Assembly (NCBI GenBank): GCA_021828545.1
Contig: JAJZEN010000081.1
Coordinates: 1,849 to 65,848, forward strand
From: Actinomycetes bacterium
Lineage (GTDB): Bacteria; Actinomycetota; Acidimicrobiia; Acidimicrobiales; RAAP-2
Reading direction: 5' to 3'
Length of the DNA: 64,000 bases
The position numbers and the translations under genes were made by a program. Position 1 is the stretch's first letter. Each line of letters begins with the position of its first letter. A model generated the notes under the pieces. That model worked only from the letters and a program-made list of their open reading frames with translations. It searched no databases and was not told the origin of the DNA. Shown here one piece after another: positions 1,756-59,685 of the stretch.

Positions 1756-2778
1756 GTGCGCAACCAAATTCGTTATATCGTCGCCGCCGTCGTCGTCGTC
1801 GCGGGAATTGCCATCATCGTCGCGACCCAGGGATCCGCAAAGAAGCCGAGCGCGACGCCGACCACTACGACCACCACCAAATCTTCGACTGGCCCCATCG
1901 CCCCCCTCACCGGGCTACCGGATCCGTCCGGATCGGCCCTGAAGCGACCGGCGCTGGTGATCAAGGTGGAGGACGACACTAATTCCCTGCCCCAGTGGGG
2001 CGTGGACCAGGCCGACGTGGTCTACGAGGAGATCATCAATGGAGGCATCCCTCGTCTCGCGGCGATCTTCAACCAGAATGCGCCCACACTCGTGGGCCCG
2101 ATTCGCTCGGTGCGTCCCACTGACACTCAAATCGTCGACCCGATCGGCGGAATCTTCGCATTCTCCGGCGGCGCCCCCTACGCCATTGCTTCGATTTCCA
2201 CTGCTCCGGTGAAGCAGATTCAAGAATCGAACGCGGGGTCGGCGATGTTCCGTGATAACAGTCGACAGGCGCCCTACAACCTCTTCGGTAGCGCCGCGGC
2301 CCTGTTTGCGCTCGGGGCCGGGAGCAAGCCCGTCCCGCCCGTCCCGCTCTTTCAGTACCGTCCGCTGGGGCAAGGAGCGGTCGGCACGCCCGTGAGTAAG
2401 TTCGTCGTCAACTTCCCGAGTATCTATCCCATGACGTGGACGTGGGACACTACGACACATTCCTGGGACCGTTCAACACAGTTCGCCGGACCCGACTACA
2501 CCGGTAATCACGTGCGCGAATCGCCCAAGAACGTGATTGTCACCTACGTGAATTACGTCAATGGCGTGGGTGCCTTTACCTCCTACGCCAACTTGCAAAG
2601 CGGCGGGGTGGCGGACGTCTTCACGGACGGCAAGGAAATCGTGGGCACGTGGGCGCGTCATTCGCCCACGACACCCATCGAGTACCTCAACGCGAAGGGT
2701 AAGGCCATCCGATTGACGCCGGGTCAGACCTGGGTGGAGCTTTTGAACAATGGTGCACCCGTCACTGTGACGCATTAG
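1756..2778 (+). CDS. DUF3048 (YerB-like) exported protein
   Basis: N-terminal hydrophobic segment and Thr-rich linker; LTGLP...RPALVIKVED...PQWGVDQADVVYEE, GPIRSVRP and LTPGQTWVEL motifs. TAAGTT box lies 6 nt before the GTG. Confidence 0.85.
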   Translation: MRNQIRYIVAAVVVVAGIAIIVATQGSAKKPSATPTTTTTTKSSTGPIAPLTGLPDPSGSALKRPALVIKVEDDTNSLPQWGVDQADVVYEEIINGGIPRLAAIFNQNAPTLVGPIRSVRPTDTQIVDPIGGIFAFSGGAPYAIASISTAPVKQIQESNAGSAMFRDNSRQAPYNLFGSAAALFALGAGSKPVPPVPLFQYRPLGQGAVGTPVSKFVVNFPSIYPMTWTWDTTTHSWDRSTQFAGPDYTGNHVRESPKNVIVTYVNYVNGVGAFTSYANLQSGGVADVFTDGKEIVGTWARHSPTTPIEYLNAKGKAIRLTPGQTWVELLNNGAPVTVTH

Positions 2779-2785
2779 GCCCATC

Positions 2786-3796
2786 GTGCGCCTCGGGAGC
2801 ATGTACGGCCCTGATCACACTTTCCTCGGCGTGCCGGCGGGTGACCCCGATGAGCCTGCGCAGTGGCGCCACGCGCGCGCAGCCATTGTGGGCGCTCCCT
2901 TTGACGGAGGCACGTCCTATCGTGCGGGCTGTCGTTTTGGTCCTCGGGCGATTCGCGCGGCCGACTACCTACCCCATGACGGGAGTCGACCGAGTCTGGC
3001 GTTAGGTGTCGACGCGCTCCTCGACACCGGTGTCGTGGATCTTGGCGACGTGGTGATGCCCTCGGGCGAGATGGAGAAATCGTTGCAGGCCCTTGAGGCG
3101 CGCGTCGCACTCGTCGCCGCCGCCGGGGTGGTGCCGATTATCCTCGGCGGTGATCACACCATCGCCCTCGCGGACGTGACGGGGGTCGCTCGCCACGTCG
3201 GATGGGGACGAGTCTCGGTTCTGCACTTCGACGCGCACGCCGATACCGGCGACTCACAGTGGGGCTCACTCTACGGGCACGGGACGCCGATGCGACGCCT
3301 CATCGAGTCGGGCGCGTGTCGCGGTGACCGATTCGTGCAGATCGGCTTGCGGGGCTACTGGCCCGAGCCCGAGACGTTGAGGTGGATGGCGGTTCAGGGT
3401 ATGCGATCCTTCGAAATGGCCGAAGTGGTGGCGCGCGGCTTGGGAGAAGTACTCGACGAAGCTATCGCCATCGCGACTGATGACTGCGATGCGGTGTTCC
3501 TCTCGGTGGACGTCGACGTGGTGGATCCGGGCTCCGCACCCGGGACCGGTACACCCGAGCCCGGGGGACTGACGAGCCGACAATTGCTCGATGCCGTACG
3601 TCGCATCGCTATGGAAGTGCCGCTCGCGGGTATGGACGTGGTCGAAGTCTCGCCACCCTACGACCACGCGGACATCACCGCTTACCTGGGGAATCGCGTC
3701 GTGCTCGAAACGTTGGGGGGCATGGCCTGGCGCGACCAGAGAGTCCGCGGCGTAGCGGTGCGCGATCCGCGCGATCCGCTCCTGGGGGACCGCTAG
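2786..3796 (+). CDS. speB: Agmatinase (ureohydrolase family)
   Basis: GGDH, DAHAD, HGTP and SVDVDVVDP Mn-binding motifs. Start could be GTG 2786 or ATG 2801. Confidence 0.85.
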   Translation: MRLGSMYGPDHTFLGVPAGDPDEPAQWRHARAAIVGAPFDGGTSYRAGCRFGPRAIRAADYLPHDGSRPSLALGVDALLDTGVVDLGDVVMPSGEMEKSLQALEARVALVAAAGVVPIILGGDHTIALADVTGVARHVGWGRVSVLHFDAHADTGDSQWGSLYGHGTPMRRLIESGACRGDRFVQIGLRGYWPEPETLRWMAVQGMRSFEMAEVVARGLGEVLDEAIAIATDDCDAVFLSVDVDVVDPGSAPGTGTPEPGGLTSRQLLDAVRRIAMEVPLAGMDVVEVSPPYDHADITAYLGNRVVLETLGGMAWRDQRVRGVAVRDPRDPLLGDR

Positions 3797-5157: not shown

Positions 5158-5238
5158 TGCACGTCCTTTCGTGGGGCCAATGACCATCGTAGAAGGTCGG
5201 GCCCGGATGAAACGACGGGCGCGAAGTAGCATTCGTCC

Positions 5239-6153: not shown

Positions 6154-6281
6154 GCCTCGCGCACGACTCGCTGGGGGAGGACGCGGCCCTTCGCACCTGA
6201 TAGAACGCAGAAATGTGACGTTGCGGTGACTGAAACAATTGCGCGCCGCTCAAAGAAATTGAAGAAAGTTCACAAATGCGC

Positions 6282-6352: not shown

Positions 6353-6364
6353 GGGGGGAAATAG

Positions 6365-7477
6365 GTGGTCGATTCAACGCCGACGATTTACGACGTCGCC
6401 GAGCGAGCCGGGGTTTCCATCGCGACCGTCAGTCGGGCGCTGAACTCGCTCGATTCAGTTCGCCCCACCACTCGCGACAAAGTGTTGCGCGCCATGGAGG
6501 AACTCGACTTCGTGCCCAACGCCGTCGCGCGAGGCCTGTCCATCGGTCGCCACGGGATTCTCGGTCTTGTTTTCACGCGCGTGGCGGGAGAGAATAACGG
6601 CCTCGCGGTGGAAGAGGCGAGTCTGCTCTACACCGATATCGTCATTCGAGGCGCCGAGACCCGCGCGGCGGAGAAGGGCTACTCGCTCCTCTTGAGCAGT
6701 TTTGACGAGTCGCACCCCTCGGGTATGAGTGCGTTGCTCAGTCTCACCGGCACGGTGGATGGGCTCATCGTCATGGACCGTGTCCTCGGCGACGAGGACG
6801 TGGCGTACTTGGCGCGGCGGATTCCCGTGGTGCTCCTGGCCGGGAGTGGCGACTCGACTGCGGCCATCACCATTCGCGTCGACAACGAATTCGCCATGAG
6901 CGCATTGGCCGAGCACCTCGTGAACGTGCACCAAGTGTCGAACGTGGGGTTCGTGACGGGGGCGCTCGAAAGCCCCGACGCCACGGCCCGCGCGAACGGA
7001 TTTCGCGCCTCGGTCACGCGCCTCGGTGCCGAAATGGCCGACGCCGATTTCCTCGAGGCGGACTGGACGTCGGCGGGGGGCGAAGCGGCGATGCGCGCGC
7101 GGCTCGACCGCGACGAGCCCCTCCCAGAAGTCTTCGCCTGCGCGAACGACCAGATGGCGGTCGGGGTCATCTTCGCTCTACAGGAGCGCGGACGTCGAGT
7201 ACCCGAGGACATCCTCGTGACGGGTTTCGACGACATCACTCTGACCCGATACTTCAGTCCTCCCCTCACCACAATTCGACAATCGGGGGGCGTCTTGGGC
7301 TCCGTGGCGGTCGACGCGCTCGTGTCCACGATTGACGGCACCGACAAGATCGAACGGGTCATCGTCTTGCCCGTCGAACTCGTCGTGCGCGCGAGCTGCG
7401 GTTGCGCGAGCGACCCCGAGGAACCTCTACGGCAGTTGCACGCCTCGAGTTACACGCACCAGCGAGTCCACGCATGA
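6365..7477 (+). CDS. LacI-family transcriptional regulator
   Basis: PTIYDVAERAGVSIATVSRALN helix-turn-helix; FACANDQMAVG; GFDD...PPLTTIRQ. Confidence 0.95.
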   Translation: MVDSTPTIYDVAERAGVSIATVSRALNSLDSVRPTTRDKVLRAMEELDFVPNAVARGLSIGRHGILGLVFTRVAGENNGLAVEEASLLYTDIVIRGAETRAAEKGYSLLLSSFDESHPSGMSALLSLTGTVDGLIVMDRVLGDEDVAYLARRIPVVLLAGSGDSTAAITIRVDNEFAMSALAEHLVNVHQVSNVGFVTGALESPDATARANGFRASVTRLGAEMADADFLEADWTSAGGEAAMRARLDRDEPLPEVFACANDQMAVGVIFALQERGRRVPEDILVTGFDDITLTRYFSPPLTTIRQSGGVLGSVAVDALVSTIDGTDKIERVIVLPVELVVRASCGCASDPEEPLRQLHASSYTHQRVHA

Positions 7478-8454
7478 GGGTCCTCGGTCGACGTCTCTCG
7501 CTCTACGTCGTGACGGCGTGGGTGGCGATCACCGTGAACTTCCTCCTACCGCACCTGATGCCCGGCAACCCGGTGCAAAACCTGATCGGCAAGGTCACGG
7601 GTCAGATCACCCCCCAGCAGGTTCGCTCGATCGAACTGTTGTTCGGCGTCGGACTTCATCAGGGCCTGTGGAGCCAGTACGTCGGCTACTGGCACCAGTT
7701 GTTTCTCGGCAACCTGGGCGTCTCGATCACTTTGTCCACGCCCGTCTCGAGCGTGTTGGCGTCGGCGGTACCGTGGACCGTCGGGCTGATTGGTGTCTCG
7801 ACGATACTGAGTTTCATCCTCGGCACGTTCGCGGGCGCTTTGCTCGGTTGGTTCCGCGGTTCGCGCTTGGACTCGGTCATTCCCGTCGCCACGTTCTTCC
7901 AGGCCGCCCCGTACTTCTTCTTGGGTACCGTGGTGCTGCTCTTGTTCGGATCGGACCTGCATTGGTTCCCCGTGCTGGGCGCCTACAGCCAATCGGTCAC
8001 GCCGGGGTGGCACTGGGACTTCGTCTTCAGTCTGCTGCGCTACGGCGAGTTGCCCGTCATCACCATCGTGTTGAGTTCGGTCGCGGGATGGATGCTGGGT
8101 ATGCGCAACATGATGATCACCATGATCGCCGAGGACTTCGTGCTCATGGCCGTGGCCAAGGGATTACCGCGACGAAAGGTCATTGCGCACGCGGCGCGTA
8201 ATGCGGTCCTGCCCAGCGTGGCGAACCTCTCGTTGGCGATCGGTCTCGTGGTGTCGGGGGCGTTACTGGTGGAACTCGTCTTTAACTACCCGGGCGTGGG
8301 CAACCTCCTCCTCCAGGCCGTACTGAACGAAGATTATCCCCTGATCCAGGGGATATTCTTGGTGATCACCATGACCGTGCTGGCGGCCAATCTTTTGGCG
8401 GACGTCTTGTATTTCATCCTTGATCCCCGCACGAGAACGGAAGCCGCAGTATGA
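7474..8454 (+). CDS. Opp/Dpp-type ABC transporter permease (OppB-like)
   Basis: ATGA overlap with the LacI stop; EAA-like loop EDFVLMAVAKGL; ELVFNYPGVG; DPR C-terminal motif. Confidence 0.9.
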   Translation: MRVLGRRLSLYVVTAWVAITVNFLLPHLMPGNPVQNLIGKVTGQITPQQVRSIELLFGVGLHQGLWSQYVGYWHQLFLGNLGVSITLSTPVSSVLASAVPWTVGLIGVSTILSFILGTFAGALLGWFRGSRLDSVIPVATFFQAAPYFFLGTVVLLLFGSDLHWFPVLGAYSQSVTPGWHWDFVFSLLRYGELPVITIVLSSVAGWMLGMRNMMITMIAEDFVLMAVAKGLPRRKVIAHAARNAVLPSVANLSLAIGLVVSGALLVELVFNYPGVGNLLLQAVLNEDYPLIQGIFLVITMTVLAANLLADVLYFILDPRTRTEAAV

Positions 8455-9434
8455 GTTCGGTCCGACTACCCCGGTCACCCAAGGTCCTCGTGGGCGTAGG
8501 GATCGTCGCGTTCTTCGCAATCTTGACGGTGATTGGACCCTGGCTCGCGCCGGATAATCCGAGCGCGACGAACTTCCTACCCAACCTGGGCCCCTCGGGG
8601 AGCCATTGGTTGGGGACGACGGCGCTAGGTCAGGACATCTTTTCTCAACTGCTCGACGGCGCGCGCGCCACCATGATCGTGGCGATCGTCGCCGGGGTCG
8701 TCGCAACCGTCTTGTCCGTGATCGTGGGCGTGGCCGCGGGTTACCTCGGCGGTAAGACCGACGACGGTTTGTCGTTACTATCGAACGTCTTCTTGGCGAT
8801 CCCGGGACTCCCGCTGCTGATCGTGATCGACAGCTACCTACCGGCCAGCGGCCGGTCCAATTCCTTCGCCATCGGTCTCATCATCAGCCTGACCGGATGG
8901 GCGTGGGGCGCGCGAGTCTTGCGTGCGCAGACCATGTCGTTGCGCAACCGAGATTTCGTCGAGGCCGCGCGCATCATTGGCGAGAGCCGGCGGCGTATCA
9001 TGCTTTTTGAAATCGCCCCCAACCTTTTGCCGGTCCTGGCGTCGTCGTTCCTCTTCACCACGCTGTATTCCATCGGCGCCTACGTGACGCTCGCCTACGT
9101 GGGTCTGACCTCTACGGCGGTGTGGAACTGGGGCACCATGATGTACTGGGCTCAAGCGAACAACGCACCCCTGGCGGGCCAATGGTACTGGTTCGTTCCG
9201 CCGGGAATCTGCATCGCCCTGATCGGCACTGGTTTGGCCCTCCTCAACTTCGGTATCGACGAGTTCATTAACCCGCGGCTTCGCGCGGCGGGACTGAGCG
9301 GCAAAGTTCGCCGCGCCAGTGGCCTCCCGCGTCGACCTCGACTGGGGTACACGCCCGTGGCGCGTCGCTCGCCGGGTCGCGTCGTGGTGACACCCGCTCG
9401 GCCGACGCCATCGTCCACGAACGTCGGAGCCTGA
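8451..9434 (+). CDS. Opp/Dpp-type ABC transporter permease (OppC-like)
   Basis: HWLGTTALGQDIFSQ and RDFVEAARIIGES motifs. Confidence 0.9.
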   Translation: MSSVRLPRSPKVLVGVGIVAFFAILTVIGPWLAPDNPSATNFLPNLGPSGSHWLGTTALGQDIFSQLLDGARATMIVAIVAGVVATVLSVIVGVAAGYLGGKTDDGLSLLSNVFLAIPGLPLLIVIDSYLPASGRSNSFAIGLIISLTGWAWGARVLRAQTMSLRNRDFVEAARIIGESRRRIMLFEIAPNLLPVLASSFLFTTLYSIGAYVTLAYVGLTSTAVWNWGTMMYWAQANNAPLAGQWYWFVPPGICIALIGTGLALLNFGIDEFINPRLRAAGLSGKVRRASGLPRRPRLGYTPVARRSPGRVVVTPARPTPSSTNVGA

Positions 9435-10579
9435 TGATGGACAGCGCCACGACCAACCTCACCGTCGATGAACTGAACGACACGGTGCTCGAGATCGAGG
9501 ATTTCTGCGTCGACTACGGCTGGGGAGAAACGGCCGTGCGGGCGGTGAACAACGTGAACCTCAGCGTGCGACGATCGAGGGTGCTCGGCGTCGCCGGCGA
9601 GAGCGGTAGCGGTAAGTCGACCCTGGTCTACGCCGTCACCCGACTACTGCGGTCGCCGGGCGTGATCTCGGGTGGGAGCGCCCGACTCACCTACGACGAC
9701 CCCACGGCGAGCGACGTCAAGCGTCGCACCGTGGATCTCATGGCCGCCTCGGGGAGCGAACTGCGCGCGATCCGCTGGTCCCAGGTGTCCATCGTCCTGC
9801 AGAGTGCCCTGAATGCTCTCAATCCGGTGTTGCGCATCGGTCACGAGTTCGACGAGTTGCTCAAGACCCATCGGAAGGACTTGAAGAAGGAACAGCGTCA
9901 CGCCAGGGCCGTCGAATTACTGGGACTGGTCGGGCTCAACGAGGACCGCCTCTCGCGGTTCCCCCACGAGTTGTCTGGTGGCCAACGACAACGGATCATG
10001 ATTGCCCTGGCGCTCGCGCTCGATCCGCAACTGGTGATCATGGACGAACCAACGACGGCGCTCGACGTGGTGACCCAGCGCGAGATCGTCAATGAACTGG
10101 CCCAGCTCCGCGCCCGATTCGGCTTCTCCATGATCTTCATCACCCACGACCTCTCGTTGTTGGTTGAGTTGGCCGACGACATCGCCGTCATGTACTCGGG
10201 CAACGTGGTGGAATGGGCCCCCGCGGGAGATCTCTATTCGGCGCCGCGTCATCCCTACACGCTGGGTCTCTTGAATTCCTCGCCGCCTCTCTCGGGCGAA
10301 CGGCACGAACTCGTAGGAATCGCGGGTGCGCCGCCGGACCTGTCGCAGCCGTTGAGCGGCTGCAGCTTCCACAATCGTTGCCCCTTCGTCCTCGAACGCT
10401 GCTCCCGTGACGTTCCCCCTCTACGGATTCTTGATTCCTCGGGTCGCAAGGCGGCGTGTTGGTTGCACGACGATCCGACCACGGTACCCGTCGCGTTGCG
10501 ACGAGTGGCGCTCGCGACGTCGCCGGGTGAACCGGCGCCCGGCGCGCCAATGACCCTTGCGCGAGAGGAGATCCGATGA
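9434..10579 (+). CDS. Oligopeptide/dipeptide-type ABC ATPase (OppD-like)
   Basis: GESGSGKS, LSGGQRQR and DEPTTALD motifs; C-terminal HPYT...GCSFHNRCP...ACWL. Confidence 0.92.
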   Translation: MMDSATTNLTVDELNDTVLEIEDFCVDYGWGETAVRAVNNVNLSVRRSRVLGVAGESGSGKSTLVYAVTRLLRSPGVISGGSARLTYDDPTASDVKRRTVDLMAASGSELRAIRWSQVSIVLQSALNALNPVLRIGHEFDELLKTHRKDLKKEQRHARAVELLGLVGLNEDRLSRFPHELSGGQRQRIMIALALALDPQLVIMDEPTTALDVVTQREIVNELAQLRARFGFSMIFITHDLSLLVELADDIAVMYSGNVVEWAPAGDLYSAPRHPYTLGLLNSSPPLSGERHELVGIAGAPPDLSQPLSGCSFHNRCPFVLERCSRDVPPLRILDSSGRKAACWLHDDPTTVPVALRRVALATSPGEPAPGAPMTLAREEIR

Positions 10580-11613
10580 GTGACGTTCGTCACGAGGCCC
10601 GACTCGAGGCCCGTCACCTGTCGCGACACTTCGTGGTCCGAAGTGGTCACGGTTTCGTACGACCCAAGCGCATCGTCCGTGCGGTGGACGACGTGTCGCT
10701 CGCGCTGCGCGAGCGTCGCGTGACCGCGGTGGTGGGTGAATCGGGATCGGGCAAATCGGTCCTCGCGCGCATGCTCGCGCGCATCGTCACGCCCACGTCG
10801 GGCGAACTCGTACTCGACGGCACCACGATCGAGCTGGGGTCGCCGCGCGACCTCGCGTACGCCTCGGAAGTCCAGTTAGTGCTACAAGACCCCTTCGCCT
10901 CGATAAATCCCGTGCACCGTATCGCCAATTCTCTCGCTCGCCCCTTAGCGATTCACGGCATTCCTAAGGCGGAGTTGGGAGATCGGATGCGCGCGGCGCT
11001 GTCGCGCGTGTCGCTCGAGCCCCCCGAACGCTACTTGGACCGCTACCCCCACGAACTCTCGGGGGGGCAGTTACAGCGAGTGTCCATCGCGCGAGCGCTC
11101 TGCGTCAACCCCAAGGTCCTCTTGGCCGATGAGCCGATCTCCATGCTCGACGTGTCGGTGAGGTTGGGGGTGTTGAATCTCCTACGCGGGCTCTGTGATG
11201 ATGAGCAACTCGCCGTGCTGTACATCACGCACGACATCGCCTCGGCGCGCTACATCGCCGACGAGACCATCGTGATGTACGCCGGCAACGTCGTCGAACG
11301 TTCCGAGGGCACCGCGTTGATCGATTCTCCGGCGCATCCCTACACCCAATTGTTGATCTCCTCGGTGCCTGACCCGAGCGATCCACTACGTCGCGCACCC
11401 GAAATCGAGGACCGGGCGGGTCAAGGCATCTTTCCCGACGTGGGCTGTCGTTTCGCGCCACGATGCCCTCACGCCATGGAGGTGTGTCGTACGAGTGCGC
11501 CGCCGATGTTCGAGGTGGCCGCTGGCCACGAGGCGCGCTGCTGGTTGCACGAGTCGGCGGTCAAGGTTTCTGTCACCCGACGAGAGCAAGGGGGAAACAT
11601 TTCGACGACGTAA
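10576..11613 (+). CDS. Oligopeptide/dipeptide-type ABC ATPase (OppF-like)
   Basis: GESGSGKS, LSGGQLQR and DEPISMLD motifs; HPYT...GCRFAPRCP. Confidence 0.92.
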   Translation: MSDVRHEARLEARHLSRHFVVRSGHGFVRPKRIVRAVDDVSLALRERRVTAVVGESGSGKSVLARMLARIVTPTSGELVLDGTTIELGSPRDLAYASEVQLVLQDPFASINPVHRIANSLARPLAIHGIPKAELGDRMRAALSRVSLEPPERYLDRYPHELSGGQLQRVSIARALCVNPKVLLADEPISMLDVSVRLGVLNLLRGLCDDEQLAVLYITHDIASARYIADETIVMYAGNVVERSEGTALIDSPAHPYTQLLISSVPDPSDPLRRAPEIEDRAGQGIFPDVGCRFAPRCPHAMEVCRTSAPPMFEVAAGHEARCWLHESAVKVSVTRREQGGNISTT

Positions 11614-11756: not shown

Positions 11757-13427
11757 ATGATTAGAAAGATAGCCATCATCGCTTCCGCGATGTCGTGCTT
11801 GACACTAGGTGTCATCGGCGTTAACGGCGCAACAGCGTCAGCGGCCAAGAGCCACGTGTTGACCGAGGAGGGCAATACGGGGGTCACGTTCACGAAGAAC
11901 TTCAATCCCTTCAACCCCAACTCGCTGGTCGGGCAGATGAGCATTAAGTCGCTCACCTACGAACCCCTCATCGAGTTCGACTACCTCAAGGCCAATACCC
12001 AGTACCCGTGGCTGGCCACGGGCTACACGTGGACCAATGGTGGACGTACGTTGACGTTCGCTCTGCGTCACAACGTGGAGTGGAGTGACGGCCAGCCCTT
12101 CACTTCGGCGGACGTGGCCTACACGTTCAACCTAATCGGACAGAGCCCAGCGGCCAACTACTCGGGCGTGCCCGCGATGACCAGTCCGGCGATCGCCAAG
12201 GGTGCCTATACGGTGGTGCTGAACTTCGCGTCACCGGCGTACCAGGACATCACGGGCATTGCCGGTAGCACCCTCATCGTGCCCGAGCACATTTGGTCCA
12301 AGATTGCCAACCCCGCCAAGGCTGTCATCACTTACCCCGTCGGTACGGGACCCTACGTGCTCAAGAGCTACTCACCGCAGTTGGTCTCCTACGTCGCGAA
12401 CCCGCACTACTGGGGTGGGACACCCGCAGCGACGCAGGTCAATATCCCGTCGTACTCGAGCAATGCGTCGGCTGCGACGGCTCTCGCCAATGGTCAGTTG
12501 GACTGGGCCGGAAACGATATCGCCAACATCAAATCACTTTTCATCAACAAGAATCCCAAGACGAACCACTACTTCTTCGCGGGTGGTAACACGGTCAGCC
12601 TGGAGTTCAACACCACCGGAACCGGTCCGTTGAGCGACCCCAAGGTGCGCGCGGCGATCAGTGCGGGCATCAACCGGACCGCACTTGGCGTGGAGGGTGA
12701 GAGCGGTTACGAAGTGCCGGCGACGTCGTCGAGCGGCTTGATCTTGCCCAACCAGGGTGCGTTCCAGAGCCCGGCAACGAAGAATGACCTGTCGCCCACC
12801 GCCGACGCCGCCAAAGTGGCGTCGATCCTGACGAGTGACGGCTACACGAAGGCGTCGAGCGGCATGTGGGAGAAGAACGGTCAGGAGATCACCTTCAGTA
12901 TCGAGGATCCGACCGCCTACTCCGACTACTACGCCGACGCGCAGTTGATCTCGAACTCACTGAAGTCCGAGGGTATCAACGCGACGGTGGACGGCGTGCA
13001 GGCCTCGCAGTGGTACTCCGACTTGGCGGCGGGAACGTTCCAGAGCGCCATCCACTGGGGTGCCGGCGGAGCGAATCCGTTCGTGCAGTACCAGAACTGG
13101 CTGGACTACAACACCTTCGTGGCGCCGAACCCGACCAACGCGTCGGGTGACTTTGGTCGCTACAAGAGTCCCGCGGCCGAGACGGCCCTGAAGAAGCTGG
13201 AGACGACGGCTCCGAACAACGTGGCGGCCGTCAAGAGCGCCACGCAAGCCCTGGGCAACATCTTGACCACGCAGGTCCCGGTGGCTCCGTTGCTCTACGG
13301 TGCGGACTGGAACATTTACTCCACGGCCCACTTCACCGGCTGGGTGACCGCGGCGAACCCCTACGCTGACCCGTCGCCCAGCGACCCCGAGTTGCCTCTC
13401 ATCTTGATGCACCTCAAGGCCGCGTAG
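11757..13427 (+). CDS. Family-5 ABC substrate-binding protein, probably oligosaccharide-binding
   Basis: Signal peptide; NFNPF, WSDGQPFTSADVAYTF, GTGPY and DPKVRAAIS motifs; genomic context of LacI and GH1. Confidence 0.88.
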   Translation: MIRKIAIIASAMSCLTLGVIGVNGATASAAKSHVLTEEGNTGVTFTKNFNPFNPNSLVGQMSIKSLTYEPLIEFDYLKANTQYPWLATGYTWTNGGRTLTFALRHNVEWSDGQPFTSADVAYTFNLIGQSPAANYSGVPAMTSPAIAKGAYTVVLNFASPAYQDITGIAGSTLIVPEHIWSKIANPAKAVITYPVGTGPYVLKSYSPQLVSYVANPHYWGGTPAATQVNIPSYSSNASAATALANGQLDWAGNDIANIKSLFINKNPKTNHYFFAGGNTVSLEFNTTGTGPLSDPKVRAAISAGINRTALGVEGESGYEVPATSSSGLILPNQGAFQSPATKNDLSPTADAAKVASILTSDGYTKASSGMWEKNGQEITFSIEDPTAYSDYYADAQLISNSLKSEGINATVDGVQASQWYSDLAAGTFQSAIHWGAGGANPFVQYQNWLDYNTFVAPNPTNASGDFGRYKSPAAETALKKLETTAPNNVAAVKSATQALGNILTTQVPVAPLLYGADWNIYSTAHFTGWVTAANPYADPSPSDPELPLILMHLKAA

Positions 13428-17176: not shown

Positions 17177-17704
17177 CTAGTACGCGCCACCGCCCGAACT
17201 GGGCTTGGTCGGTGAGTGCGTCGAGGGCTTGGCGAGGACGACGTCGGCCCATCGACCCCACGTGTTGGTGAGGTTGCCGTGAACTTGACCGGGCGCCGTG
17301 TCGAGCACGAACCAGTACAACTTCTTGCCCGCGTAGGTCACTTGTCGTCGCCCCCCGGCGACGACGACACTCGACAGCTCGCGCGCGTTCACTCCTTTGC
17401 CGGCGACGGCCTTCATCGATCCCTTGGGTAAGAGGACGGGGGGCCAATACTTCCAACACGTCGCCGTGCAGGCGACCTTGCTCGGCGCCAGGGTGTACAG
17501 CGTCGTTCGACTGGCCAGGATTGTCCCATCCGTCTTCGTCTTGAGCGCGGATATCACGACCTTGGGCGTCGTGTGAGGGGTGCTGGCGCCCGATACCGTA
17601 GTCGTACCCACGACGCCGAGTGCCGCGCCCAGCGTGACGCCAGCGACGACACCTCGTCGCAGCCACGTCGGGCGAATGAGTGTCGTCGATGTGTGGTGTT
17701 CCAT
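17177..17704 (-). CDS. Secreted Yx(F/W/Y)xxD-repeat protein (COG4315 / Lipoprotein_15-like)
   Basis: TLYTL..CTATCWKYWPP and QVTYAGKKLYWFVLDTAPGQVHG repeats. Start revised to ATG 17704 after GAGGAAAGGA. Confidence 0.8.
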   Translation of the reverse strand: MEHHTSTTLIRPTWLRRGVVAGVTLGAALGVVGTTTVSGASTPHTTPKVVISALKTKTDGTILASRTTLYTLAPSKVACTATCWKYWPPVLLPKGSMKAVAGKGVNARELSSVVVAGGRRQVTYAGKKLYWFVLDTAPGQVHGNLTNTWGRWADVVLAKPSTHSPTKPSSGGGAY

Positions 17705-17819
17705 GTAGGTCCTTTCCTCAGTGAACGCGCGAAGGTCGATGCGTTCGGGTAGTGGCACGCGAACTCGCTCCTACTCGTTGTCGCGAGTGACGCAGCGAAC
17801 TCCACGCTCCGGCTAGGTA

Positions 17820-17845
17820 TACGCACGAACGGTCCCGAGGGATCA
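17820..17845 (-). promoter_or_regulatory. Putative ECF-sigma promoter of the COG4315 gene
   Basis: Minus strand TGATCCCTCG-N12-CGTA, with the same motif and spacing as upstream of the sigma gene. Confidence 0.7.
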
Positions 17846-17890
17846 CGAGGGCCACCCGGCGGCGTGGCACCACGGGGCAAGACGTGGGAG

Positions 17891-18556
17891 TTACGACGAC
17901 CACGTCGCGGTCGCGAGCACGTCGCCGTAGTGGTCGCTGATCGTGGCCGAGGTCACCCGCGCCGCGCCGGCCTGGATCTGCGCCGACCACGCGCCGACGC
18001 CATTGACGATGGAGAAACGTCCGAGGGGTTCGACGCGCCCATTGGTCAGGCGCACGCTGCACCATGCCGTGCCGGACCAGTGTCGGTCGTCGACGCTCAT
18101 CGAGAGCCATGAGGGGTCGCCTCGAGTGAGGAAGACCTGACCTAGGACTCGGCCCTGGGACGTGAGGCGTGCGCTGAGAGGTGGGGAGGTGCGCGCCGTA
18201 CGCTCGGAGAGATCGGACCCGAGGACCAGTCCCAGGACAACAAGCACCGATGCGACGAGTGCGGCGCCCAGACGTGGGCGCCACGCGTGGCGTCGTCGTA
18301 GCGTGCGCGGGGCGCCGAAATGACGCTCGAGGAGTCGTCCCTCGAATCCGATCGGTGGTTCGATGGCCGGGGTCAGCACCAGTAACGCGTCGCCCACGTC
18401 GCTCCACGAGGCCACCTCATCGCCGCAGGCCCCGCACGTGGCGAGGTGCTCGATCATCCGCGCCCGGTCCCGACCCGTGAGAGTGCCGAGGGCGAACTCC
18501 ACGAGCTCGGACCGATACGACGAGCACTCGTCACCCGGCGGACGTGAGTACGTCAC
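17891..18556 (-). CDS. Zinc-finger (ZAS) transmembrane anti-sigma factor, RskA-like
   Basis: HLATCGAC (HxxxCxxC), one transmembrane segment and an extracytoplasmic tail. GTG 18556 overlaps the sigma stop (GTGA). Confidence 0.85.
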   Translation of the reverse strand: MTYSRPPGDECSSYRSELVEFALGTLTGRDRARMIEHLATCGACGDEVASWSDVGDALLVLTPAIEPPIGFEGRLLERHFGAPRTLRRRHAWRPRLGAALVASVLVVLGLVLGSDLSERTARTSPPLSARLTSQGRVLGQVFLTRGDPSWLSMSVDDRHWSGTAWCSVRLTNGRVEPLGRFSIVNGVGAWSAQIQAGAARVTSATISDHYGDVLATATWSS

Positions 18557-49650: not shown

Positions 49651-49672
49651 TCCGTGAGAGTTTGTTGGCGAG

Positions 49673-50767: not shown

Positions 50768-50798
50768 AGGCCCAGGCTAGCCACGCCCTAGGCGACCA

Positions 50799-53569: not shown

Positions 53570-54453
53570 CCCGCCGACTCGTGGTCGTGGGCGACGTCAT
53601 GCTCGACGTCGTCGTGCGGCCGCAAGGACCGTACGCCTCCACCAGCGACACTCCGGCGCGGGTGCGGGTGGGGCGCGGTGGCTCGGCCGCGAACTTGGCG
53701 GTCGCTCTACGCGCGGCTACCGATAGTTCCTTCGACGTCGTTTTCACCGGGGTCGCGGGAGACGATGCCGCCGCCCAGATTGTGATGGCGGATCTTCACG
53801 CGAGTGGCGTCACGAACCAGATCACCACGGTGGCGGGCACCACCGGCGTGGTGGTGGCGCTCGTGGCGAGTGAGGGCGAGCGCGCGATGATGACCGATCG
53901 TGGTGTCAACTCCGCGTTGCGTTTCGCGCACGTATCTCATCTCCTGGACGCCTCGCTCACGCACGTACACGTCTCGGGATATAGCGCTCTTGACCATCGC
54001 TCGCGATCCCTGGTTCCCGAGGTACTCGCGGCGGCGAATTCGTGGGGGGCCACATCGTCCATCGACGTGTGCTCGGTGGGTCCCCTGCGTGAGGTGGGGA
54101 GTGAGACGTTTTGGCGCGTCGCGCGTGGTGCGACGATGCTCTTCGCCAACGAGGAGGAGGCCCTCACTCTGGCTCAGACGACTGACGTGATGGTCGCGTT
54201 GGCGACGCTGTCGCGTGAGTGGTCCGAGGTGGTGATCACGCGGGGACCCCTCGGTGCGCTGGCTCACGACGACGGACAGACGTTTCGGGTCAACGCGTCG
54301 CCGGGAGACGTGCTCGACACGACCGGGGCCGGTGACGCAGCGACGGGAACGTACCTGGGCCGTCGATTGGCGGGCGACGACGTCCCGGGCGCCCTCGAGT
54401 CCGCCATGGCCGCGGCTGCGCACGTGGTGCGAGGCCTAGGAAGTCGCCCCTAG
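53566..54453 (+). CDS. PfkB-family kinase, probable pseudouridine kinase
   Basis: GGSAANLA and DTTGAGDA motifs; translationally coupled to psuG. Confidence 0.85.
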   Translation: MTRRLVVVGDVMLDVVVRPQGPYASTSDTPARVRVGRGGSAANLAVALRAATDSSFDVVFTGVAGDDAAAQIVMADLHASGVTNQITTVAGTTGVVVALVASEGERAMMTDRGVNSALRFAHVSHLLDASLTHVHVSGYSALDHRSRSLVPEVLAAANSWGATSSIDVCSVGPLREVGSETFWRVARGATMLFANEEEALTLAQTTDVMVALATLSREWSEVVITRGPLGALAHDDGQTFRVNASPGDVLDTTGAGDAATGTYLGRRLAGDDVPGALESAMAAAAHVVRGLGSRP

Positions 54454-55757
54454 TCGCGTCGATAGGGGACGCCGTCGGCGGCGGGGGGTCGTACGCGGCC
54501 AATCAAACCGGCCACGACGGCGATGGTGATGATGTACGGGAACATCCCGATGATCTCGCTCGAAAGAGGAACGTTGTAACTCTGTAGCGCGTTGACCAAA
54601 TACGCGGAGAGACCAAAGATGATCGAGGCCACCACCGCACCCGAGGGCTTCCATCGTCCAAAGATGAGTGCCGCCAGGGCCACGTATCCCAGACCCGAGG
54701 TGTACCCCACCTGGAACTGTCCCTGAGTGGCCATAAAGGCCACCCCACCCACCCCAGCGATGGTCCCTCCGAGTACCACATTGCGATAGCGCGTTCTCGC
54801 AACGTTGATACCGACCGATTCGGCCGCCTGAGGATGCTCTCCCACGGCGCGCACACGTAATCCCCAGCGAGTCTTGAAGAGGGCGAAGCTCACCGCGGCA
54901 ACGAGCACGGCCATGAGATAGAAGAAGCCGCTCTCGTTGAACAGAGTGGGCCCGATGATCGGAATCTTGTCGAGCAACGGCACACCGATGTTCGAGGCGA
55001 TGTTGCCGACGTTCAAGTTGGGGTACGGCGTAAGAATTTGTAGATTCAAGTACGAAGAGAGACCGGACATCATCGTGACGATAACGACGCCCACGATGAT
55101 TTGATCCGAGAGATACCGGATTGCGAGAAACGCCAGTATCCAACCCAACGCGGCACCCGAGAGAGCGCCGACGAGTGCGGCGAGCAGGAAACTGTGGGTC
55201 GTCGAATCGATCATCGAACCGAAAAATGCCCCCGCGATGAATTGGCCCTCAATCGCGATGTTGACCACACCGGCTCGCTCGCACATCACGCCCGAGAGGG
55301 ACCCGTAGATCAAGACCATCGCAATGGCCGAAGAACCAATGAGGACGGAGGTCAGATTAACGAAAGGTACTTGGGCCGGACCGGGCGTGCGACACGCCCA
55401 GAAAAGGAGGGCGATTAAGAAGAGGGCCGCCACGATACTGAAGCGAACGAGGGGAGCGGAGGGGCGCCGAACATACACCTCGACACCTAGCCCAATCATC
55501 AAGAGGGCCAAGACAAGATTGGTTGGCCGCGTGAGGACCGTTAGTTGGCCCAGCGACCACGGTACGGCCGAGGACACGTTGACGGGTGTGAAGGTGAAGG
55601 CGGAATGCGCGTCGGCGACGGATCCGAGCCCAAAGGCCCACGCGCTGAAAACCCCCACAATGATCATGAGTACCCCGATGGCACGAGTGCGGCCGTGGGG
55701 GACGACGTCGGAGCGCGTGGACGTCGAAGTGATAGCGACGTCGGTCACTGTCCCCAT
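54450..55757 (-). CDS. Nucleoside ABC transporter permease (NupC-like)
   Basis: CERAGVVNIAIEG, TRWGLRVRAVGEHP and GLGYVALAALIFGRWKP motifs. Confidence 0.9.
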   Translation of the reverse strand: MGTVTDVAITSTSTRSDVVPHGRTRAIGVLMIIVGVFSAWAFGLGSVADAHSAFTFTPVNVSSAVPWSLGQLTVLTRPTNLVLALLMIGLGVEVYVRRPSAPLVRFSIVAALFLIALLFWACRTPGPAQVPFVNLTSVLIGSSAIAMVLIYGSLSGVMCERAGVVNIAIEGQFIAGAFFGSMIDSTTHSFLLAALVGALSGAALGWILAFLAIRYLSDQIIVGVVIVTMMSGLSSYLNLQILTPYPNLNVGNIASNIGVPLLDKIPIIGPTLFNESGFFYLMAVLVAAVSFALFKTRWGLRVRAVGEHPQAAESVGINVARTRYRNVVLGGTIAGVGGVAFMATQGQFQVGYTSGLGYVALAALIFGRWKPSGAVVASIIFGLSAYLVNALQSYNVPLSSEIIGMFPYIITIAVVAGLIGRVRPPAADGVPYRRD

Positions 55758-56995
55758 CCCTTGGTCGCCAACTGCACACCCTGGGCCTGGGTGCGCAGGT
55801 GGAAGATCTCCTTCACGAGAACCGGGGTAGCGACGAAGAGCACCACGATGGACTGAATAACGGTGGCCAGGTCCAGGGGTATTCCCGTCATCGCCTGCAT
55901 GGTGCGGCCTCCAACGCCGAGCGCGGCAAACAATAGTGAGCCCCAGACAATGCCCCCGGGCCTGTTGCGACCTAGTAGGGCTACGGTGATCGCGGTGAAG
56001 CCGATACCCGCATTGCCGATGAGGAAGCCGCCGTCGATGTAGTGGTTCGTCGAGGCCATTTGTACTTCGCCCGCTAGACCGGCGAGTCCCCCCGAGATGA
56101 CAAAAACCAAGATGATGACGGCCTTGGGATTGATGCCCGACGCGCGAGCGGCGAAGGGATTGGCGCCCGTCACGCGGAAGTCAAAGCCGAGGGTCGAACG
56201 GTTGAGAAACCACCAGGCAAAGATGACGACCGCGGCGGCCACGAAAATGCCATAACTGACGCGTAATCCCGACGACGTGCCGAAGAGGGGTTGAAGAATG
56301 GCGGAGTGGTCGATGGTGCGAGAGATGTCGTTGGATTGTCCGGGCTGTTGTAACGCTGTGGAGAGGACGACGTAGAGCAAGAAAAACGCGATGATGTAGT
56401 TCAACATGAGTGTGACAATCACCTCGTGCGCCCCCGCGTACGCTTTCAAGATACCCGGAATGAGTCCCCCGACGATTCCACCGAGAACGCCGGCGACGAG
56501 CGTGAGGGGCAAATGAATCACCGAGGTCATGTGAAGCATCGAACCGGCCCAGACGCCGACGATTCCCCCGAGGATCGCTTGACCATTGGCCCCAATATTG
56601 AAGAGACCAGTCTGGAAAGCAATACCTACGCCGACGCTGGCGATGACCAACGGAGTCGCGTAGGTCAGGGTCTCCGAGATGGGGGTCATCGTGGTGTCCC
56701 ATCCCTTCCCCGTCGTGAATGAATGCACGAACGATCGAGGGTCGCCGATCGAACCGACGAATAAGGATCGATATGCCGCGCTCACGTTGTCCCAGGTGAT
56801 TTTGAGCGCGCTAAAAATAGCGGTGGGACTGTGAAAGATGTGGCGCCAAGCGTCCAGCACGGCGGGTGTCGTGGCAATGATGACAATTGCGCCGATGAGG
56901 AATCCCAGTACGAGTGCGAAGAAGGTCAGCAGGGACGGACTCTGGCTGGTGTAGCGAGTCCACCAAGTCCGTCGAGGAGCCTCGGCGGTGGTCAC
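55745..56995 (-). CDS. Nucleoside ABC transporter permease (NupB-like)
   Basis: GLFNIGANGQ, GAHEVIVTLMLNYI and GANPFAARASG. GTG 56995 overlaps the ATPase stop. Confidence 0.9.
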   Translation of the reverse strand: MTTAEAPRRTWWTRYTSQSPSLLTFFALVLGFLIGAIVIIATTPAVLDAWRHIFHSPTAIFSALKITWDNVSAAYRSLFVGSIGDPRSFVHSFTTGKGWDTTMTPISETLTYATPLVIASVGVGIAFQTGLFNIGANGQAILGGIVGVWAGSMLHMTSVIHLPLTLVAGVLGGIVGGLIPGILKAYAGAHEVIVTLMLNYIIAFFLLYVVLSTALQQPGQSNDISRTIDHSAILQPLFGTSSGLRVSYGIFVAAAVVIFAWWFLNRSTLGFDFRVTGANPFAARASGINPKAVIILVFVISGGLAGLAGEVQMASTNHYIDGGFLIGNAGIGFTAITVALLGRNRPGGIVWGSLLFAALGVGGRTMQAMTGIPLDLATVIQSIVVLFVATPVLVKEIFHLRTQAQGVQLATKGWGQ

Positions 56996-58494
56996 GAGGG
57001 CCCAACCCCAGCCATCAACATCCCGATTTCCTCGCGAGACATCGTCGGCTCCACTACCCCCATGACCCCGCCGTCGAAGAGCACGGCGATGCGGTCTCCC
57101 AGGGCCAATACTTCGTCGAGTTCCGAACTCACGATCAATACTCCCAGTCCGCCGTTGCGCTGTTCCACTATTTGTCGGTGCACGTATTCGATGGACCCCA
57201 CGTCGAGCCCTCGGGTGGGTTGAGCCGCAATGAAGCAAGTAAGGGGACGCGACAACTCACGGGCGACGATGACCTTTTGCTGATTGCCGCCGGATAATGA
57301 ACCGGTCGGTGACTTCACGGAGGTAGTCCGCACGTCGAAACGCTGGGCCAACTCTTCTGCGTTGGCCGTGACCGCCGCCAAATTGCGAGTACCTCGACGT
57401 GCGAAGGGTGCGCGACGAGAGGTATTGAGTACCAAGTTGTCCTCGACACTCATCGACAGCACGAGGCCGTCACGCTGTCGGTCTTCGGGGACGTGCCCGA
57501 GACCCGCGTCGAGGATCTGGCGAGGAGTGCGGTTGGTCACGTCGCGTCCACCCAGAGTGATTGTCCCCGATTCGACGCGACGAAGTCCGGCAATGGCCTC
57601 GACCAGCTCAGTCTGTCCGTTCCCCTGCACTCCCGCGATCGCCAAGATCTCGCCCGAACGGACGTCCAGGGAGACGCCCTTGACGACCGTGATACCCCGG
57701 TCGTCACGAACCACCACGTCGCGCAACTCGAGCACTGGATCGCCCGCATGAACCGCCTCTTTGGTCACCTTTAAGTTGACGTCACGCCCGACCATGAGGG
57801 AGGCCAGTTCACCCTCGGATCGAGTGGGGGGGACCGAATCAATGATCTTCCCCTGGCGAATCACGGTGATGACGTCACCGACGGCCCGCACTTCCTTGAG
57901 CTTGTGGGTGATGAAGAGTATGGATTTGCCATCGTCGGCGAGTGACCGCATGATGTCCATCAGACTGTCAATCTCTTGGGGCGTGAGAACCGCGGTGGGC
58001 TCGTCGAGTATCAAGAGTTCCGCGTCATGGCTGAGAGCCTTAAGAATCTCGACGCGCTGCTGTAACCCGACGGGAAGATTCTCGACGAGTGCTTCGGGGT
58101 CCACTTCAAGGCCGAACTTTTCTGATAGAGCACGGATCTCGCTGTGGGCCCGTCGTCGGTCGAGGCGGCCGAGCGATTTTGTCGGCTCGAAGCCCAGTAC
58201 GACGTTTTCTGCGACACTAAAGACAGGAACCAGCATGAAGTGTTGGTGCACCATGCCAATCCCGCGCCGAACCGCATCGCCGGAATTGGAAAAACGAACT
58301 GGTTGGTTGTCGAGAAGAATCTCGCCCTCGTCGGCGCGCATTAAGCCGAAGACGATGTTCATCAGGGTCGATTTCCCCGCACCGTTCTCACCGAGTAGGC
58401 AGTGGATCTGGCCTGGTTCGACAATGAGGTCAATCGCGTCATTGGCGGTGAAGGAGCCAAAACGTTTCGTGATTCCTCGTAGTTCAACTCGCAT
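56992..58494 (-). CDS. CUT2-type double-domain ABC ATPase (NupA-like)
   Basis: GENGAGKST, MVHQHF, second domain GVQGNGQTEL and LSGGNQQK. Confidence 0.93.
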   Translation of the reverse strand: MRVELRGITKRFGSFTANDAIDLIVEPGQIHCLLGENGAGKSTLMNIVFGLMRADEGEILLDNQPVRFSNSGDAVRRGIGMVHQHFMLVPVFSVAENVVLGFEPTKSLGRLDRRRAHSEIRALSEKFGLEVDPEALVENLPVGLQQRVEILKALSHDAELLILDEPTAVLTPQEIDSLMDIMRSLADDGKSILFITHKLKEVRAVGDVITVIRQGKIIDSVPPTRSEGELASLMVGRDVNLKVTKEAVHAGDPVLELRDVVVRDDRGITVVKGVSLDVRSGEILAIAGVQGNGQTELVEAIAGLRRVESGTITLGGRDVTNRTPRQILDAGLGHVPEDRQRDGLVLSMSVEDNLVLNTSRRAPFARRGTRNLAAVTANAEELAQRFDVRTTSVKSPTGSLSGGNQQKVIVARELSRPLTCFIAAQPTRGLDVGSIEYVHRQIVEQRNGGLGVLIVSSELDEVLALGDRIAVLFDGGVMGVVEPTMSREEIGMLMAGVGPS

Positions 58495-58512
58495 GGCTAG
58501 GTATCGTAGCGA

Positions 58513-58551
58513 CGAACTCGACCCGGGCCTTTCGGGCCCGGGTCGAGTTCG
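58513..58551 (-). terminator. Stem-loop between the BMP gene and nupA
   Basis: Perfect 17-bp stem CGAACTCGACCCGGGCC/GGCCCGGGTCGAGTTCG. Confidence 0.7.
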
Positions 58552-58581
58552 CTTCGCGTCGGTTCGAAAACCAAGTGCTGA

Positions 58582-59685
58582 TTAGCTTGGCGTCGCCGGG
58601 TACGAGTTCGGATTCACCGAAATCTTGCCACTCTCGATACCCCGCGTCAGGCTGGCGAGGCTGGCACGCAACTTCGCCGACACCGCGACACTATTGATGT
58701 CGAGCTGGGTCCCGTTATTCTTCAATGTGCCAATGTAACTGCCACCCTTAAAGGTGCCCGCGTAGGCGCTCTCTACGGCATTTGCCACCGAGGGCTCCAC
58801 GCCCTTGGCCACGGTGGCGTTGAAGTACTTGCAATCCTGAGCGTCCGATACGCACCCGTTGGAGTCAACCCATGTCACGTACTTCCCCTTGCCCGCCTGC
58901 TGAACGGCGGCCACGGAACCCAGGCCCACTGAACCAGCGACCGGGAAGACGATGTCGGCACCTTCGGCAATGAAACTCGCCGTATCCTGGCGACCGGCGG
59001 TCTGGTCGGTGAAGTTGCCCACGAAGGTTCCCGTGCCGGGACAACTCACGAGCGTGCACGTTCCCTTGCCGGGCGTAAAGCCGAGAACCTTGACCTTGGC
59101 CTTGTTGGCCATGTCGTAGTAGCGCACACCCGCGACGAAGCCACTTTCGTACATCGTCACCGAACTGAAGTTCTCACCGCCGTATGTCGCGACCACGCCG
59201 GTCTTCGACTCCGCCGCGTCGAGGAAGCCGCCGAGGAAGGCCGCCTGGTTGGTCTGGTACTGAAGAGCCTCGAGTTCGTGTGACTTCTTGGCTTCCGACA
59301 AGGGGTTGTCGTCAACGATGGCGAACTTCTGTGTCGGGTCGGCTTCCGCGGCGGCCGCAGTGGCGGCGTCCATCAAGAAGCCGACGGTGATGATGATGTT
59401 GCAACTTTCGCCCTCGAACGTCTTGATGTTGGGAGCGTAGTCCGAGGACGAAGTGGACGACAGATAACTAATGCTGATCTTCGGGTCCTTCTTCTTTGCG
59501 TCCTGTAGACCTTTCCACGCCGAAGCATTGAATGAGTGGTCATTAATGCCGCCCGTGTCAGTGACGACGCACGCCTTAAACTTGGTGGCTGCTGTCGCGG
59601 TGACCGCGCCAACGCCGATCGTCACGGTGCCCAGGACCAGTGAACTGGCTCCCAGCACCATGGCGAGGCGACGAGTGTTCTTCAT
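58582..59685 (-). CDS. BMP/PnrA-family nucleoside-binding protein
   Basis: TDTGGINDHSFNASAWKGL, IITVGF, GADIVFPVAG and AKGV motifs. ATG 59685 follows AAGGGAG. Confidence 0.92.
   Translation of the reverse strand: MKNTRRLAMVLGASSLVLGTVTIGVGAVTATAATKFKACVVTDTGGINDHSFNASAWKGLQDAKKKDPKISISYLSSTSSSDYAPNIKTFEGESCNIIITVGFLMDAATAAAAEADPTQKFAIVDDNPLSEAKKSHELEALQYQTNQAAFLGGFLDAAESKTGVVATYGGENFSSVTMYESGFVAGVRYYDMANKAKVKVLGFTPGKGTCTLVSCPGTGTFVGNFTDQTAGRQDTASFIAEGADIVFPVAGSVGLGSVAAVQQAGKGKYVTWVDSNGCVSDAQDCKYFNATVAKGVEPSVANAVESAYAGTFKGGSYIGTLKNNGTQLDINSVAVSAKLRASLASLTRGIESGKISVNPNSYPATPS

Follow-up and report, generated by a model that had tools for sequence, protein, structure and literature searches.

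The rule that substrate-binding proteins of ATP-binding cassette (ABC) importers must be anchored in monoderm bacteria serves to read envelope architecture from genomes, and it also underpins the view of lipoproteins as ∼2-3% of Gram-positive proteomes. Described lipoproteins include OppA and Med of Bacillus subtilis, PnrA of Treponema pallidum and the LAA↓CG-type Bmp, family-5 and DUF3048 proteins of other members of the order Acidimicrobiales (here and below ↓ marks a cleavage site). Here we analyse a 64,000-nucleotide window (C48:1849-65848) from an uncultured genus of Acidimicrobiales, hereafter g1, that belongs to a class regarded as Gram-positive, and in which four proteins of normally lipid-anchored families carry no lipobox: a Bmp/PnrA-like binding protein, a family-5 solute-binding protein, a COG4315/Lipoprotein_15-repeat protein and a DUF3048 protein. 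The binding proteins of g1 belong to the same families as the described lipoproteins, share their folds and ABC-importer context and have homologous lipoprotein versions within the order, but they lack both the lipobox Cys and the flexible tether and have an Ala-x-Ala (A-x-A) site in place. In this they resemble the periplasmic binding proteins of diderms, which combine a Sec or twin-arginine (Tat) signal with a type I signal peptidase (SPase I) site just before the fold and are soluble when mature, as we infer for g1; unlike diderms, the g1 host has no outer-membrane marker (Omp85 in 0 of 41 genomes). The reading that we favour, with moderate confidence, is that the lipoprotein signal peptides of g1 have been replaced wholesale, that the binding proteins are released as soluble proteins and that a residual lipid pathway is kept for a few clients.

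The window belongs to a 1.96-Mb metagenome-assembled genome (MAG) of 63.5% G+C in 167 contigs, 91% complete. We compared it within a set of 41 Acidimicrobiales genomes, made up of 25 from g1 (the window genome and 24 further species-level genomes, with bogs, lakes, soils and acid mine drainage as habitats) and 16 from other families of the order, which are the next relatives beyond g1. A codon-usage model called 1,881 genes in the window genome at 86% coding density. For every gene, each in-frame ATG, GTG and TTG back to the preceding stop was scored for a lipobox, [LVI][ASTVI][GAS]-C at the end of the hydrophobic core of the signal peptide, using the published G+LPP and PROSITE PS51257 patterns with hydrophobicity checks, plus a relaxed scan. 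Signal types given below are pattern-level judgements, made with lipobox patterns and simple hydrophobicity rules on heuristic gene calls. The first-pass annotation of the window had noted that the four proteins lack a lipobox, and this was borne out: all four match their assigned families at the positions below with Pfam scores above the gathering thresholds, and no lipobox was found at any possible start.

1756..2778, forward strand: DUF3048 protein, 340 aa, with no Cys anywhere (Pfam DUF3048 121.5 bits, cut-off 25; DUF3048_C 63 bits).
1774..1905, forward strand: hydrophobic N-terminal segment of the DUF3048 protein (residues 7-24), then a tether rich in Thr (residues 25-50), sequence MRNQIRYIVAAVVVVAGIAIIVATQGSAKKPSATPTTTTTTKSSTGP.
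11757..13427, forward strand: family-5 solute-binding protein, 556 aa (Pfam SBP_bac_5 213.5 bits, cut-off 32.4).
11757..11843, forward strand: signal peptide of the family-5 protein (residues 1-29) with predicted SPase I site ASA↓AK, sequence MIRKIAIIASAMSCLTLGVIGVNGATASA↓AKSH.
17177..17704 (alternative end 17758), reverse strand: COG4315/Lipoprotein_15-repeat secreted protein (Pfam PF03640 25.7 bits, cut-off 24.4).
17585..17704, reverse strand: signal peptide of the COG4315 protein (residues 1-40), with Arg-Arg in the n-region, predicted site SGA↓S and no Cys, sequence MEHHTSTTLIRPTWLRRGVVAGVTLGAALGVVGTTTVSGA↓STPH.
58582..59685, reverse strand: Bmp/PnrA-like binding protein, 367 aa (Pfam Bmp 129.5 bits, cut-off 24.1).
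59590..59685, reverse strand: signal peptide of the Bmp protein (residues 1-32); the predicted SPase I site, ATA↓AT, precedes the first strand KFKACVVTDTGG by 3-4 residues, with no tether (from the sequence).
7474..11613, forward strand: ABC importer to which the family-5 protein delivers, with genes for two permeases and two ATPases (gene calls g0599-g0602, open reading frame translations).
54450..58494, reverse strand: ABC importer to which the Bmp protein delivers, with genes for two permeases and a fused double ATPase (gene calls g0642-g0644, open reading frame translation).

The four proteins are not exceptions but reflect a genus-wide collapse of the lipoproteome. Convincing lipoboxes were found in ∼6 of the 1,881 genes of the window genome (0.3%), namely cytochrome oxidase subunit II (CtaC), a GerMN-like protein and four small or unassigned proteins, against 12 of 367 genes (3.3%) when the same pipeline was applied to a 400-kb control sample of the complete genome G030, which measures 2.0 Mb and represents another family (Fisher p = 2e-6); a 400-kb sample of a second g1 species, G006, gave 2 of 396. 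The g1 count is thus about ten times below normal. A study of one monoderm lipoproteome that used the same patterns put it at ∼2.3% of the proteome, half of this being binding proteins (PMC13068155), which we take as the published norm for monoderms. Eight of the 12 G030 lipoproteins have at least 300 aa and acidic, tethered N-termini, and are binding-protein-like by appearance rather than by individual Pfam confirmation. A lipobox scan of the 13 ABC binding proteins encoded beside ABC ATPases in the window genome returned none, and all 13 have Sec-type or Tat signals with small-x-small residues at the end. Twelve of them, all but the unscanned g1879, are Pfam-confirmed members of seven families (Bmp, SBP_bac_5, SBP_bac_8/_6/_1, SBP_bac_3, Peripla_BP_4 and Peripla_BP_6).

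That relatives of these proteins are normally lipid-anchored, as had been supposed, agrees with the copies found in other families of the same order. A lipobox is present there in 7 of 9 Bmp proteins (0 of 20 in g1), in 8 of 10 DUF3048 proteins (absent in 21 of 22 g1 copies, the remaining one being a dubious positive) and in 4 of 6 resolved Lipoprotein_15 proteins (0 of 13 scored copies in g1), while among SBP_bac_5 proteins lipoboxes are present in G031, from another family, and were found neither in the g1 genomes G012 and G017 nor in any of nine copies in G038. Wrong starts, gene-calling errors or MAG incompleteness might in principle hide both lipoboxes and pathway genes, given heuristic gene calls, a genome that is 91% complete and split into 167 contigs, and an lgt of its own that is truncated at a contig end. 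An artefact of this kind is nevertheless hardly credible: all in-frame ATG, GTG and TTG starts were tested, the pipeline that finds so few lipoboxes here recovers 12 lipoproteins in the 400-kb control, and the pattern repeats in up to 24 other g1 species, two single-contig genomes included, and in 120 independent database proteins among the matches listed.

The Bmp protein illustrates what stands in place of the lipobox. Lipobox-bearing Bmp homologues in other families read LAA↓CG followed by an acidic Asp/Ser/Thr-rich tether of 20-30 residues; g1 Bmp N-termini read ...LGTLTVSVAAT..ASA↓A.KFKACVVTDTGG, and the first Cys of the window protein, Cys39, falls at about profile position 4 of a Bmp domain that starts at residue 38. 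The matches listed from a large protein search are 120 cluster representatives, all close relatives at ≥64% identity, and among these none has a lipobox and ∼110 carry [ST]A[STG]A↓A[STG] immediately ahead of the first strand. The MAGs that encode the close relatives are labelled Acidimicrobiales or Acidimicrobiaceae or only at class level and above, two being labelled Acidobacteria, and their isolate names indicate lakes, soils and mine waters. The nearest homologues outside the genus are lipoprotein versions from the same order, which points to a signal that was changed in place rather than through import of a foreign gene. A different arrangement is seen in the Bmp homologue of G028 (locus L006), where an SPase I-like signal (…GPVADA↓A) is followed, in the lipobox's stead, by a Lys/Thr-rich repeat tether (KKTTKKKTTAKKKTTAKAKD) that may attach the protein to the wall by charge.

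The binding proteins fit a secretory pattern, in that the n-region is positive, a hydrophobic core follows and positions -3 and -1 hold small residues, and the A-x-A motif recurs in binding proteins other than Bmp. Their predicted mature N-termini lie ∼3-7 residues before the Pfam domain, whereas lipoprotein homologues have tethers of 20-30 residues. The genome encodes a type I signal peptidase (g0690, C52:9734-10270; Peptidase_S26 157.7 bits) with SMQPT and GDNxxxSxDSR boxes. Since A-x-A is conserved, no tether follows it and this peptidase gene is present, cleavage and release of the binding proteins appear probable. In the model that we propose, Sec or Tat would export them, signal peptidase I would cleave at the conserved Ala-x-Ala immediately before the fold, and the proteins would be set free untethered and soluble, as in the Gram-negative periplasm.

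The DUF3048 protein seems to be handled differently. DUF3048 copies of g1 pair a hydrophobic N-terminus with a tether rich in Thr. In close orthologues of the window protein the hydrophobic segment leads into charged residues rather than a conserved A-x-A, and the Thr-rich tether is found in all of them. Because this tether is kept and a conserved cleavage motif is missing throughout the window protein's orthologue group, the hydrophobic N-terminus is probably an uncleaved signal anchor, and the protein would be held on the membrane by that helix together with the tether. The same contrast provides our main argument about the binding proteins: as DUF3048 alone keeps a tether without a cleavage motif, the signals of the binding proteins are presumably not anchors.

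Uncleaved anchors had already been raised in the first-pass annotation, and extended to the binding proteins the idea would be that their signals remain as single-pass anchors that replace the lipid anchor one for one. Such signal anchors occur for some binding proteins of Firmicutes and archaea, and the long hydrophobic cores of g1 (22 residues in Bmp, for example) would be compatible with them, as would the plausible use of this kind of anchoring by DUF3048 in the same genome. Retention would then be explained without any outer barrier, which fits the absence of Omp85, SLH and sortase signals described below. The idea suits DUF3048 but fits the binding proteins poorly. Among the 120 listed Bmp homologues, A-x-A lies 2-4 residues before the first strand in ∼110, it is found in other binding proteins as well, and selection on such a motif is not expected in an anchor. 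No tether separates helix and fold in the binding proteins, against the 25-residue Thr-rich tether in DUF3048, and in two of them the signal is of the classical Tat type, short in its core and with an AxA site. We consider one-for-one replacement by uncleaved anchors unlikely, although it is the strongest of the competing explanations.

The COG4315 protein follows the cleavable pattern, with a score for PF03640 that barely exceeds the cut-off (25.7 against 24.4 bits) and zero Cys ahead of the fold. Directly upstream of its gene lie those for a sigma factor of the ECF type and for a putative anti-sigma factor of the zinc-finger type (window 17718-19137, reverse strand).

The suggestion that this lineage has lost Lgt or LspA is wrong as stated. 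We found lgt in all 25 g1 genomes (41 of 41 overall) and lspA in 24 of them (39 of 41 overall). As the window genome is a 91%-complete MAG, absences of pathway genes are judged on the pattern across the 25 genomes; its own lgt runs off the end of contig C46, an assembly truncation. Its lspA adjoins a pseudouridine synthase gene and encodes a protein that scores 84.4 bits against PF01252, above threshold. The catalytic dyad of LspA is Asp124/Asp143 in Pseudomonas aeruginosa numbering (PMC8048626), and it is intact here, with VTDFI and FNLAD aligned to D124 and D143 of 9EMZ/5DIR. The enzyme looks functional. The motif GNEVNR, an Asp to Asn change at P. aeruginosa position 115, is seen in the LspA of the window genome (C159:8432-8905) and of G012 (L148), while all other homologues read GN..DR. 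We considered whether it marks the loss of a catalytic Asp and ruled this out, since position 115 is non-catalytic and D124 and D143 are in place.

Two parts of the pathway have nonetheless changed. Lnt, a membrane domain joined to a CN-hydrolase domain (TIGR00546, cut-off 132.9 bits), was detected in 0 of 25 g1 genomes and not in G038, whereas 14 of the 16 genomes from other families pass; a weak match in the window genome is a soluble CN-hydrolase without a transmembrane segment. The sole Lgt of g1 is a divergent paralogue that scores 80-101 bits against PF01790 over profile positions 1-239 (94 bits in Pfam for one example), compared with 127-226 bits in other families. In an alignment-based tree the Lgt of g1 falls, on a long stem and with full support, in a clade apart from the others. 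The one Lgt of G031 belongs to this clade as well, and so does a second Lgt from G038, a genome that has a canonical copy too. The search for lgt, lspA and lnt that the first-pass annotation had called for therefore gives a mixed picture, with Lnt gone and Lgt divergent but lgt and lspA retained. The presence of lgt and lspA would sit well with four proteins being mere exceptions, but the lipoprotein count is roughly tenfold too low for that, and the original observation stands.

In Escherichia coli Lgt, Asn146 is essential and lies within the signature GRxGNFxNxExxG; Y26, R143 and R239 are absolutely required, and E243 is conserved but not essential (PMC13251419). The g1 signature reads GR.LGPQFM..GGGH, against GRLGNWFNQELYG in canonical homologues from the same order, with Pro at the Asn146 position and a variable residue at that of E151, and this altered motif is conserved within g1. 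HTYG, GR and VR..DE supply equivalents of Y26, R143, R239 and E243 in an alignment to 5AZB and homologues from the order, in which the C-terminal pairwise part is weak. A divergent Lgt subgroup has been described from Deinococci, Acidimicrobiales, Anaerolineales and others, with the suggestion that such variants may use other substrates or mechanisms (PMC13251419). The g1 Lgt is likewise from Acidimicrobiales and far from the signature motif (G142-G154). Unlike the published subgroup, which is said to lack R143 and R239 (PMC13251419), it keeps equivalents of Y26, R143, R239 and E243 while N146 is replaced by Pro and E151 varies.

Lgt is more varied still across the order. Acidimicrobiales homologues (L120-L123, L154-L185) show at least four motif types at the Asn146 position, GNWFNQE (canonical), GDLIVGDH, GC..VGEH/GCFFGGCC and GPQFM..GGGH, with two or three types within several single genomes. 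One g1 genome (G004:C88, L176; 3% estimated contamination) has a second Lgt-like open reading frame of the GRYGCFFGGCC type that is fused to a long N-terminal extension.

What remains of the Lgt/LspA pathway very probably still acts on a handful of clients, because the CtaC lipobox, L-[AS]-[LM]-[SA]-G↓C-T, is kept in each of the 23 g1 genomes where the N-terminus is complete, and because G031, which has only this divergent type of Lgt, encodes binding proteins with lipoboxes. Another of the few lipoproteins left, encoded outside the window (C122:47006-48052), is 348 aa long with many Cys pairs, no Pfam match and the signal …LLLAG↓CASASTS. We considered the divergent Lgt as a cause of the lipoprotein loss and find this unlikely, as G031 has family-5 proteins with a lipobox and g1 itself keeps a canonical lipobox on CtaC.

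Reduced lipoprotein pathways have been described elsewhere. Orientia tsutsugamushi is without Lgt, Lnt and Lol according to a preprint (bioRxiv 10.64898/2026.10.19.760145), and the second Lgt of Mycobacterium smegmatis, MSMEG_5408, has low activity (PMC13251419). With these g1 shares the loss of Lnt and a deviation of Lgt at Asn146, but it is a free-living environmental actinobacterium that has retained intact Lgt-like and LspA genes together with a small set of canonical lipoproteins. The first-pass interpretation finds support in part. In g1 the pathway has been reduced rather than lost, with a divergent Lgt and LspA left for a handful of clients.

A divergent Lgt raises a further possibility, that the proteins are still lipid-modified, through non-canonical sites. 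The obvious candidate is Cys14 of the family-5 protein, in the context AMSC. This residue lies in the middle of the hydrophobic core (IIASAMSC-LTLGVIGV), which then leads to ASA↓AK, and it fails the lipobox rule owing to the hydrophobic residues that follow it. The closest relative, G012, keeps the same N-terminus with Cys14 included; the Lgt signature of g1 is altered and yet conserved within the genus, and the published survey raises the prospect of other substrates or mechanisms for variants of this sort (PMC13251419). Against this, the DUF3048 protein has no Cys, and there is none in or near the signal of the COG4315 protein and of most binding proteins, so that most candidates are already excluded for want of a Cys. 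The true lipoproteins that remain in g1 have a fully canonical lipobox, as do those of G031 with the same type of Lgt. Non-canonical lipidation is on this evidence very improbable.

A second lineage shows much of the same combination. G038 (family f15, 71% G+C) has no Lnt, no lipobox on any of its nine family-5 proteins or on Bmp, and lipoboxes in ∼3 of 348 genes (∼0.9%); its DUF3048 protein is still a lipoprotein. The trait may have arisen once, with G038 as sister to g1, or twice; a single-gene CtaC tree places the lipoprotein-rich G031 next to g1 and G038 on a long, poorly placed branch.

How free binding proteins would be retained is the central difficulty. It had been proposed that soluble binding proteins are held behind an outer barrier, but the two standard markers of such a barrier give no support. 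A search for Omp85/BamA was negative in all 41 genomes and positive in seven control diderm genomes, and SLH domains were found in none of the 25 g1 genomes and not in G038. SLH domains are not foreign to the order: G027, G033 and G037, from three other families, have 30-59 matches each, with none in the other 38 genomes, and in some Acidimicrobiales families surface proteins held by SLH domains are apparently a prominent trait. Sortase-dependent (LPXTG) or other C-terminal anchoring of the binding proteins was also considered and set aside, as no such signals were found; LPXTG-type C-termini and a credible sortase (TLxTC) were absent from the called proteome in a regular-expression scan, with no profile search made.

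A barrier of an undescribed kind, such as an outer lipid layer free of Omp85, a non-SLH S-layer or a sheath, could enclose a true periplasm in which lipid anchoring became dispensable and was lost. The tetherless A-x-A binding proteins do look like those of diderms, Lnt, canonical Lgt and ∼90% of the lipoproteome have been lost, and G038 repeats the combination of absent Lnt, nine of nine family-5 proteins without lipobox and ∼0.9% lipobox genes. On the other side stand the Omp85 and SLH searches, the former with positive diderm controls, and the literature searched, in which no ultrastructural report on Acidimicrobiia envelopes turned up. We regard such a barrier as doubtful. It is to the same degree improbable, in our estimate, that g1, abundant in bogs, lakes and soils, and, independently, at least one other family possess a periplasm-like compartment under an outer layer without Omp85 or SLH, an envelope type previously unrecognised in non-mycolate Actinomycetota; if they did, tetherless A-x-A binding proteins together with the loss of Lnt and canonical Lgt would be its genomic signature. 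More generally, our literature search on the envelope or lipoproteins of Acidimicrobiia turned up nothing directly relevant.

The binding proteins of g1 also differ from their lipoprotein homologues in charge. The mature proteins are near-neutral to basic, with a pI of 5.3-9.3 (>8 in 5 of 13) and a net charge of -10 to +10, whereas the G030 lipoprotein homologues sampled have a pI of ∼4.1 and a net charge of -21 to -45. Electrostatic retention was considered on this basis, but the pI exceeds 8 in only 5 of the 13, and this large shift could reflect habitat. The 13 mature g1 proteins are, in addition, rich in Lys and poor in Arg (310 K against 53 R, a ratio of ∼5.8), with a K/R ratio of 0.29 in the signal-less proteome of this 63.5% G+C genome and of ∼2.5 in the lipoprotein binding proteins of G030.

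We return to the reading set out at the start, wholesale replacement of lipoprotein signals with release of the binding proteins. Under it, free binding proteins would be kept in the wall-enclosed zone of a monoderm envelope, or possibly behind an outer layer unmarked by Omp85 or SLH, which is a working guess, and the divergent Lgt and LspA would still serve a handful of clients. Several points weigh against it. We infer cleavage from motif conservation, and hydrophobic cores of 17-22 residues could also span the membrane. The activity of the divergent Lgt is likewise deduced, and G031, the genome that combines a divergent Lgt as its only copy with lipobox binding proteins, is only 92% complete. 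The window genome is itself a 91%-complete MAG with its own lgt cut by a contig end. We also know of no accepted mechanism by which a monoderm that releases all of its binding proteins would retain them, and no marker of an outer barrier was found.

If the favoured reading is right, an environmentally widespread actinobacterial genus breaks the monoderm anchoring rule. Should a monoderm wall prove able to retain free binding proteins, the way in which such genomes are read would change; the alternative is that an outer barrier has gone unrecognised in these organisms. For the lipoprotein pathway itself, g1 provides, in nature, a minimal set of clients for an Lgt that is divergent and lacks Asn146, which is relevant both to the mechanism of Lgt and to work on its inhibitors.

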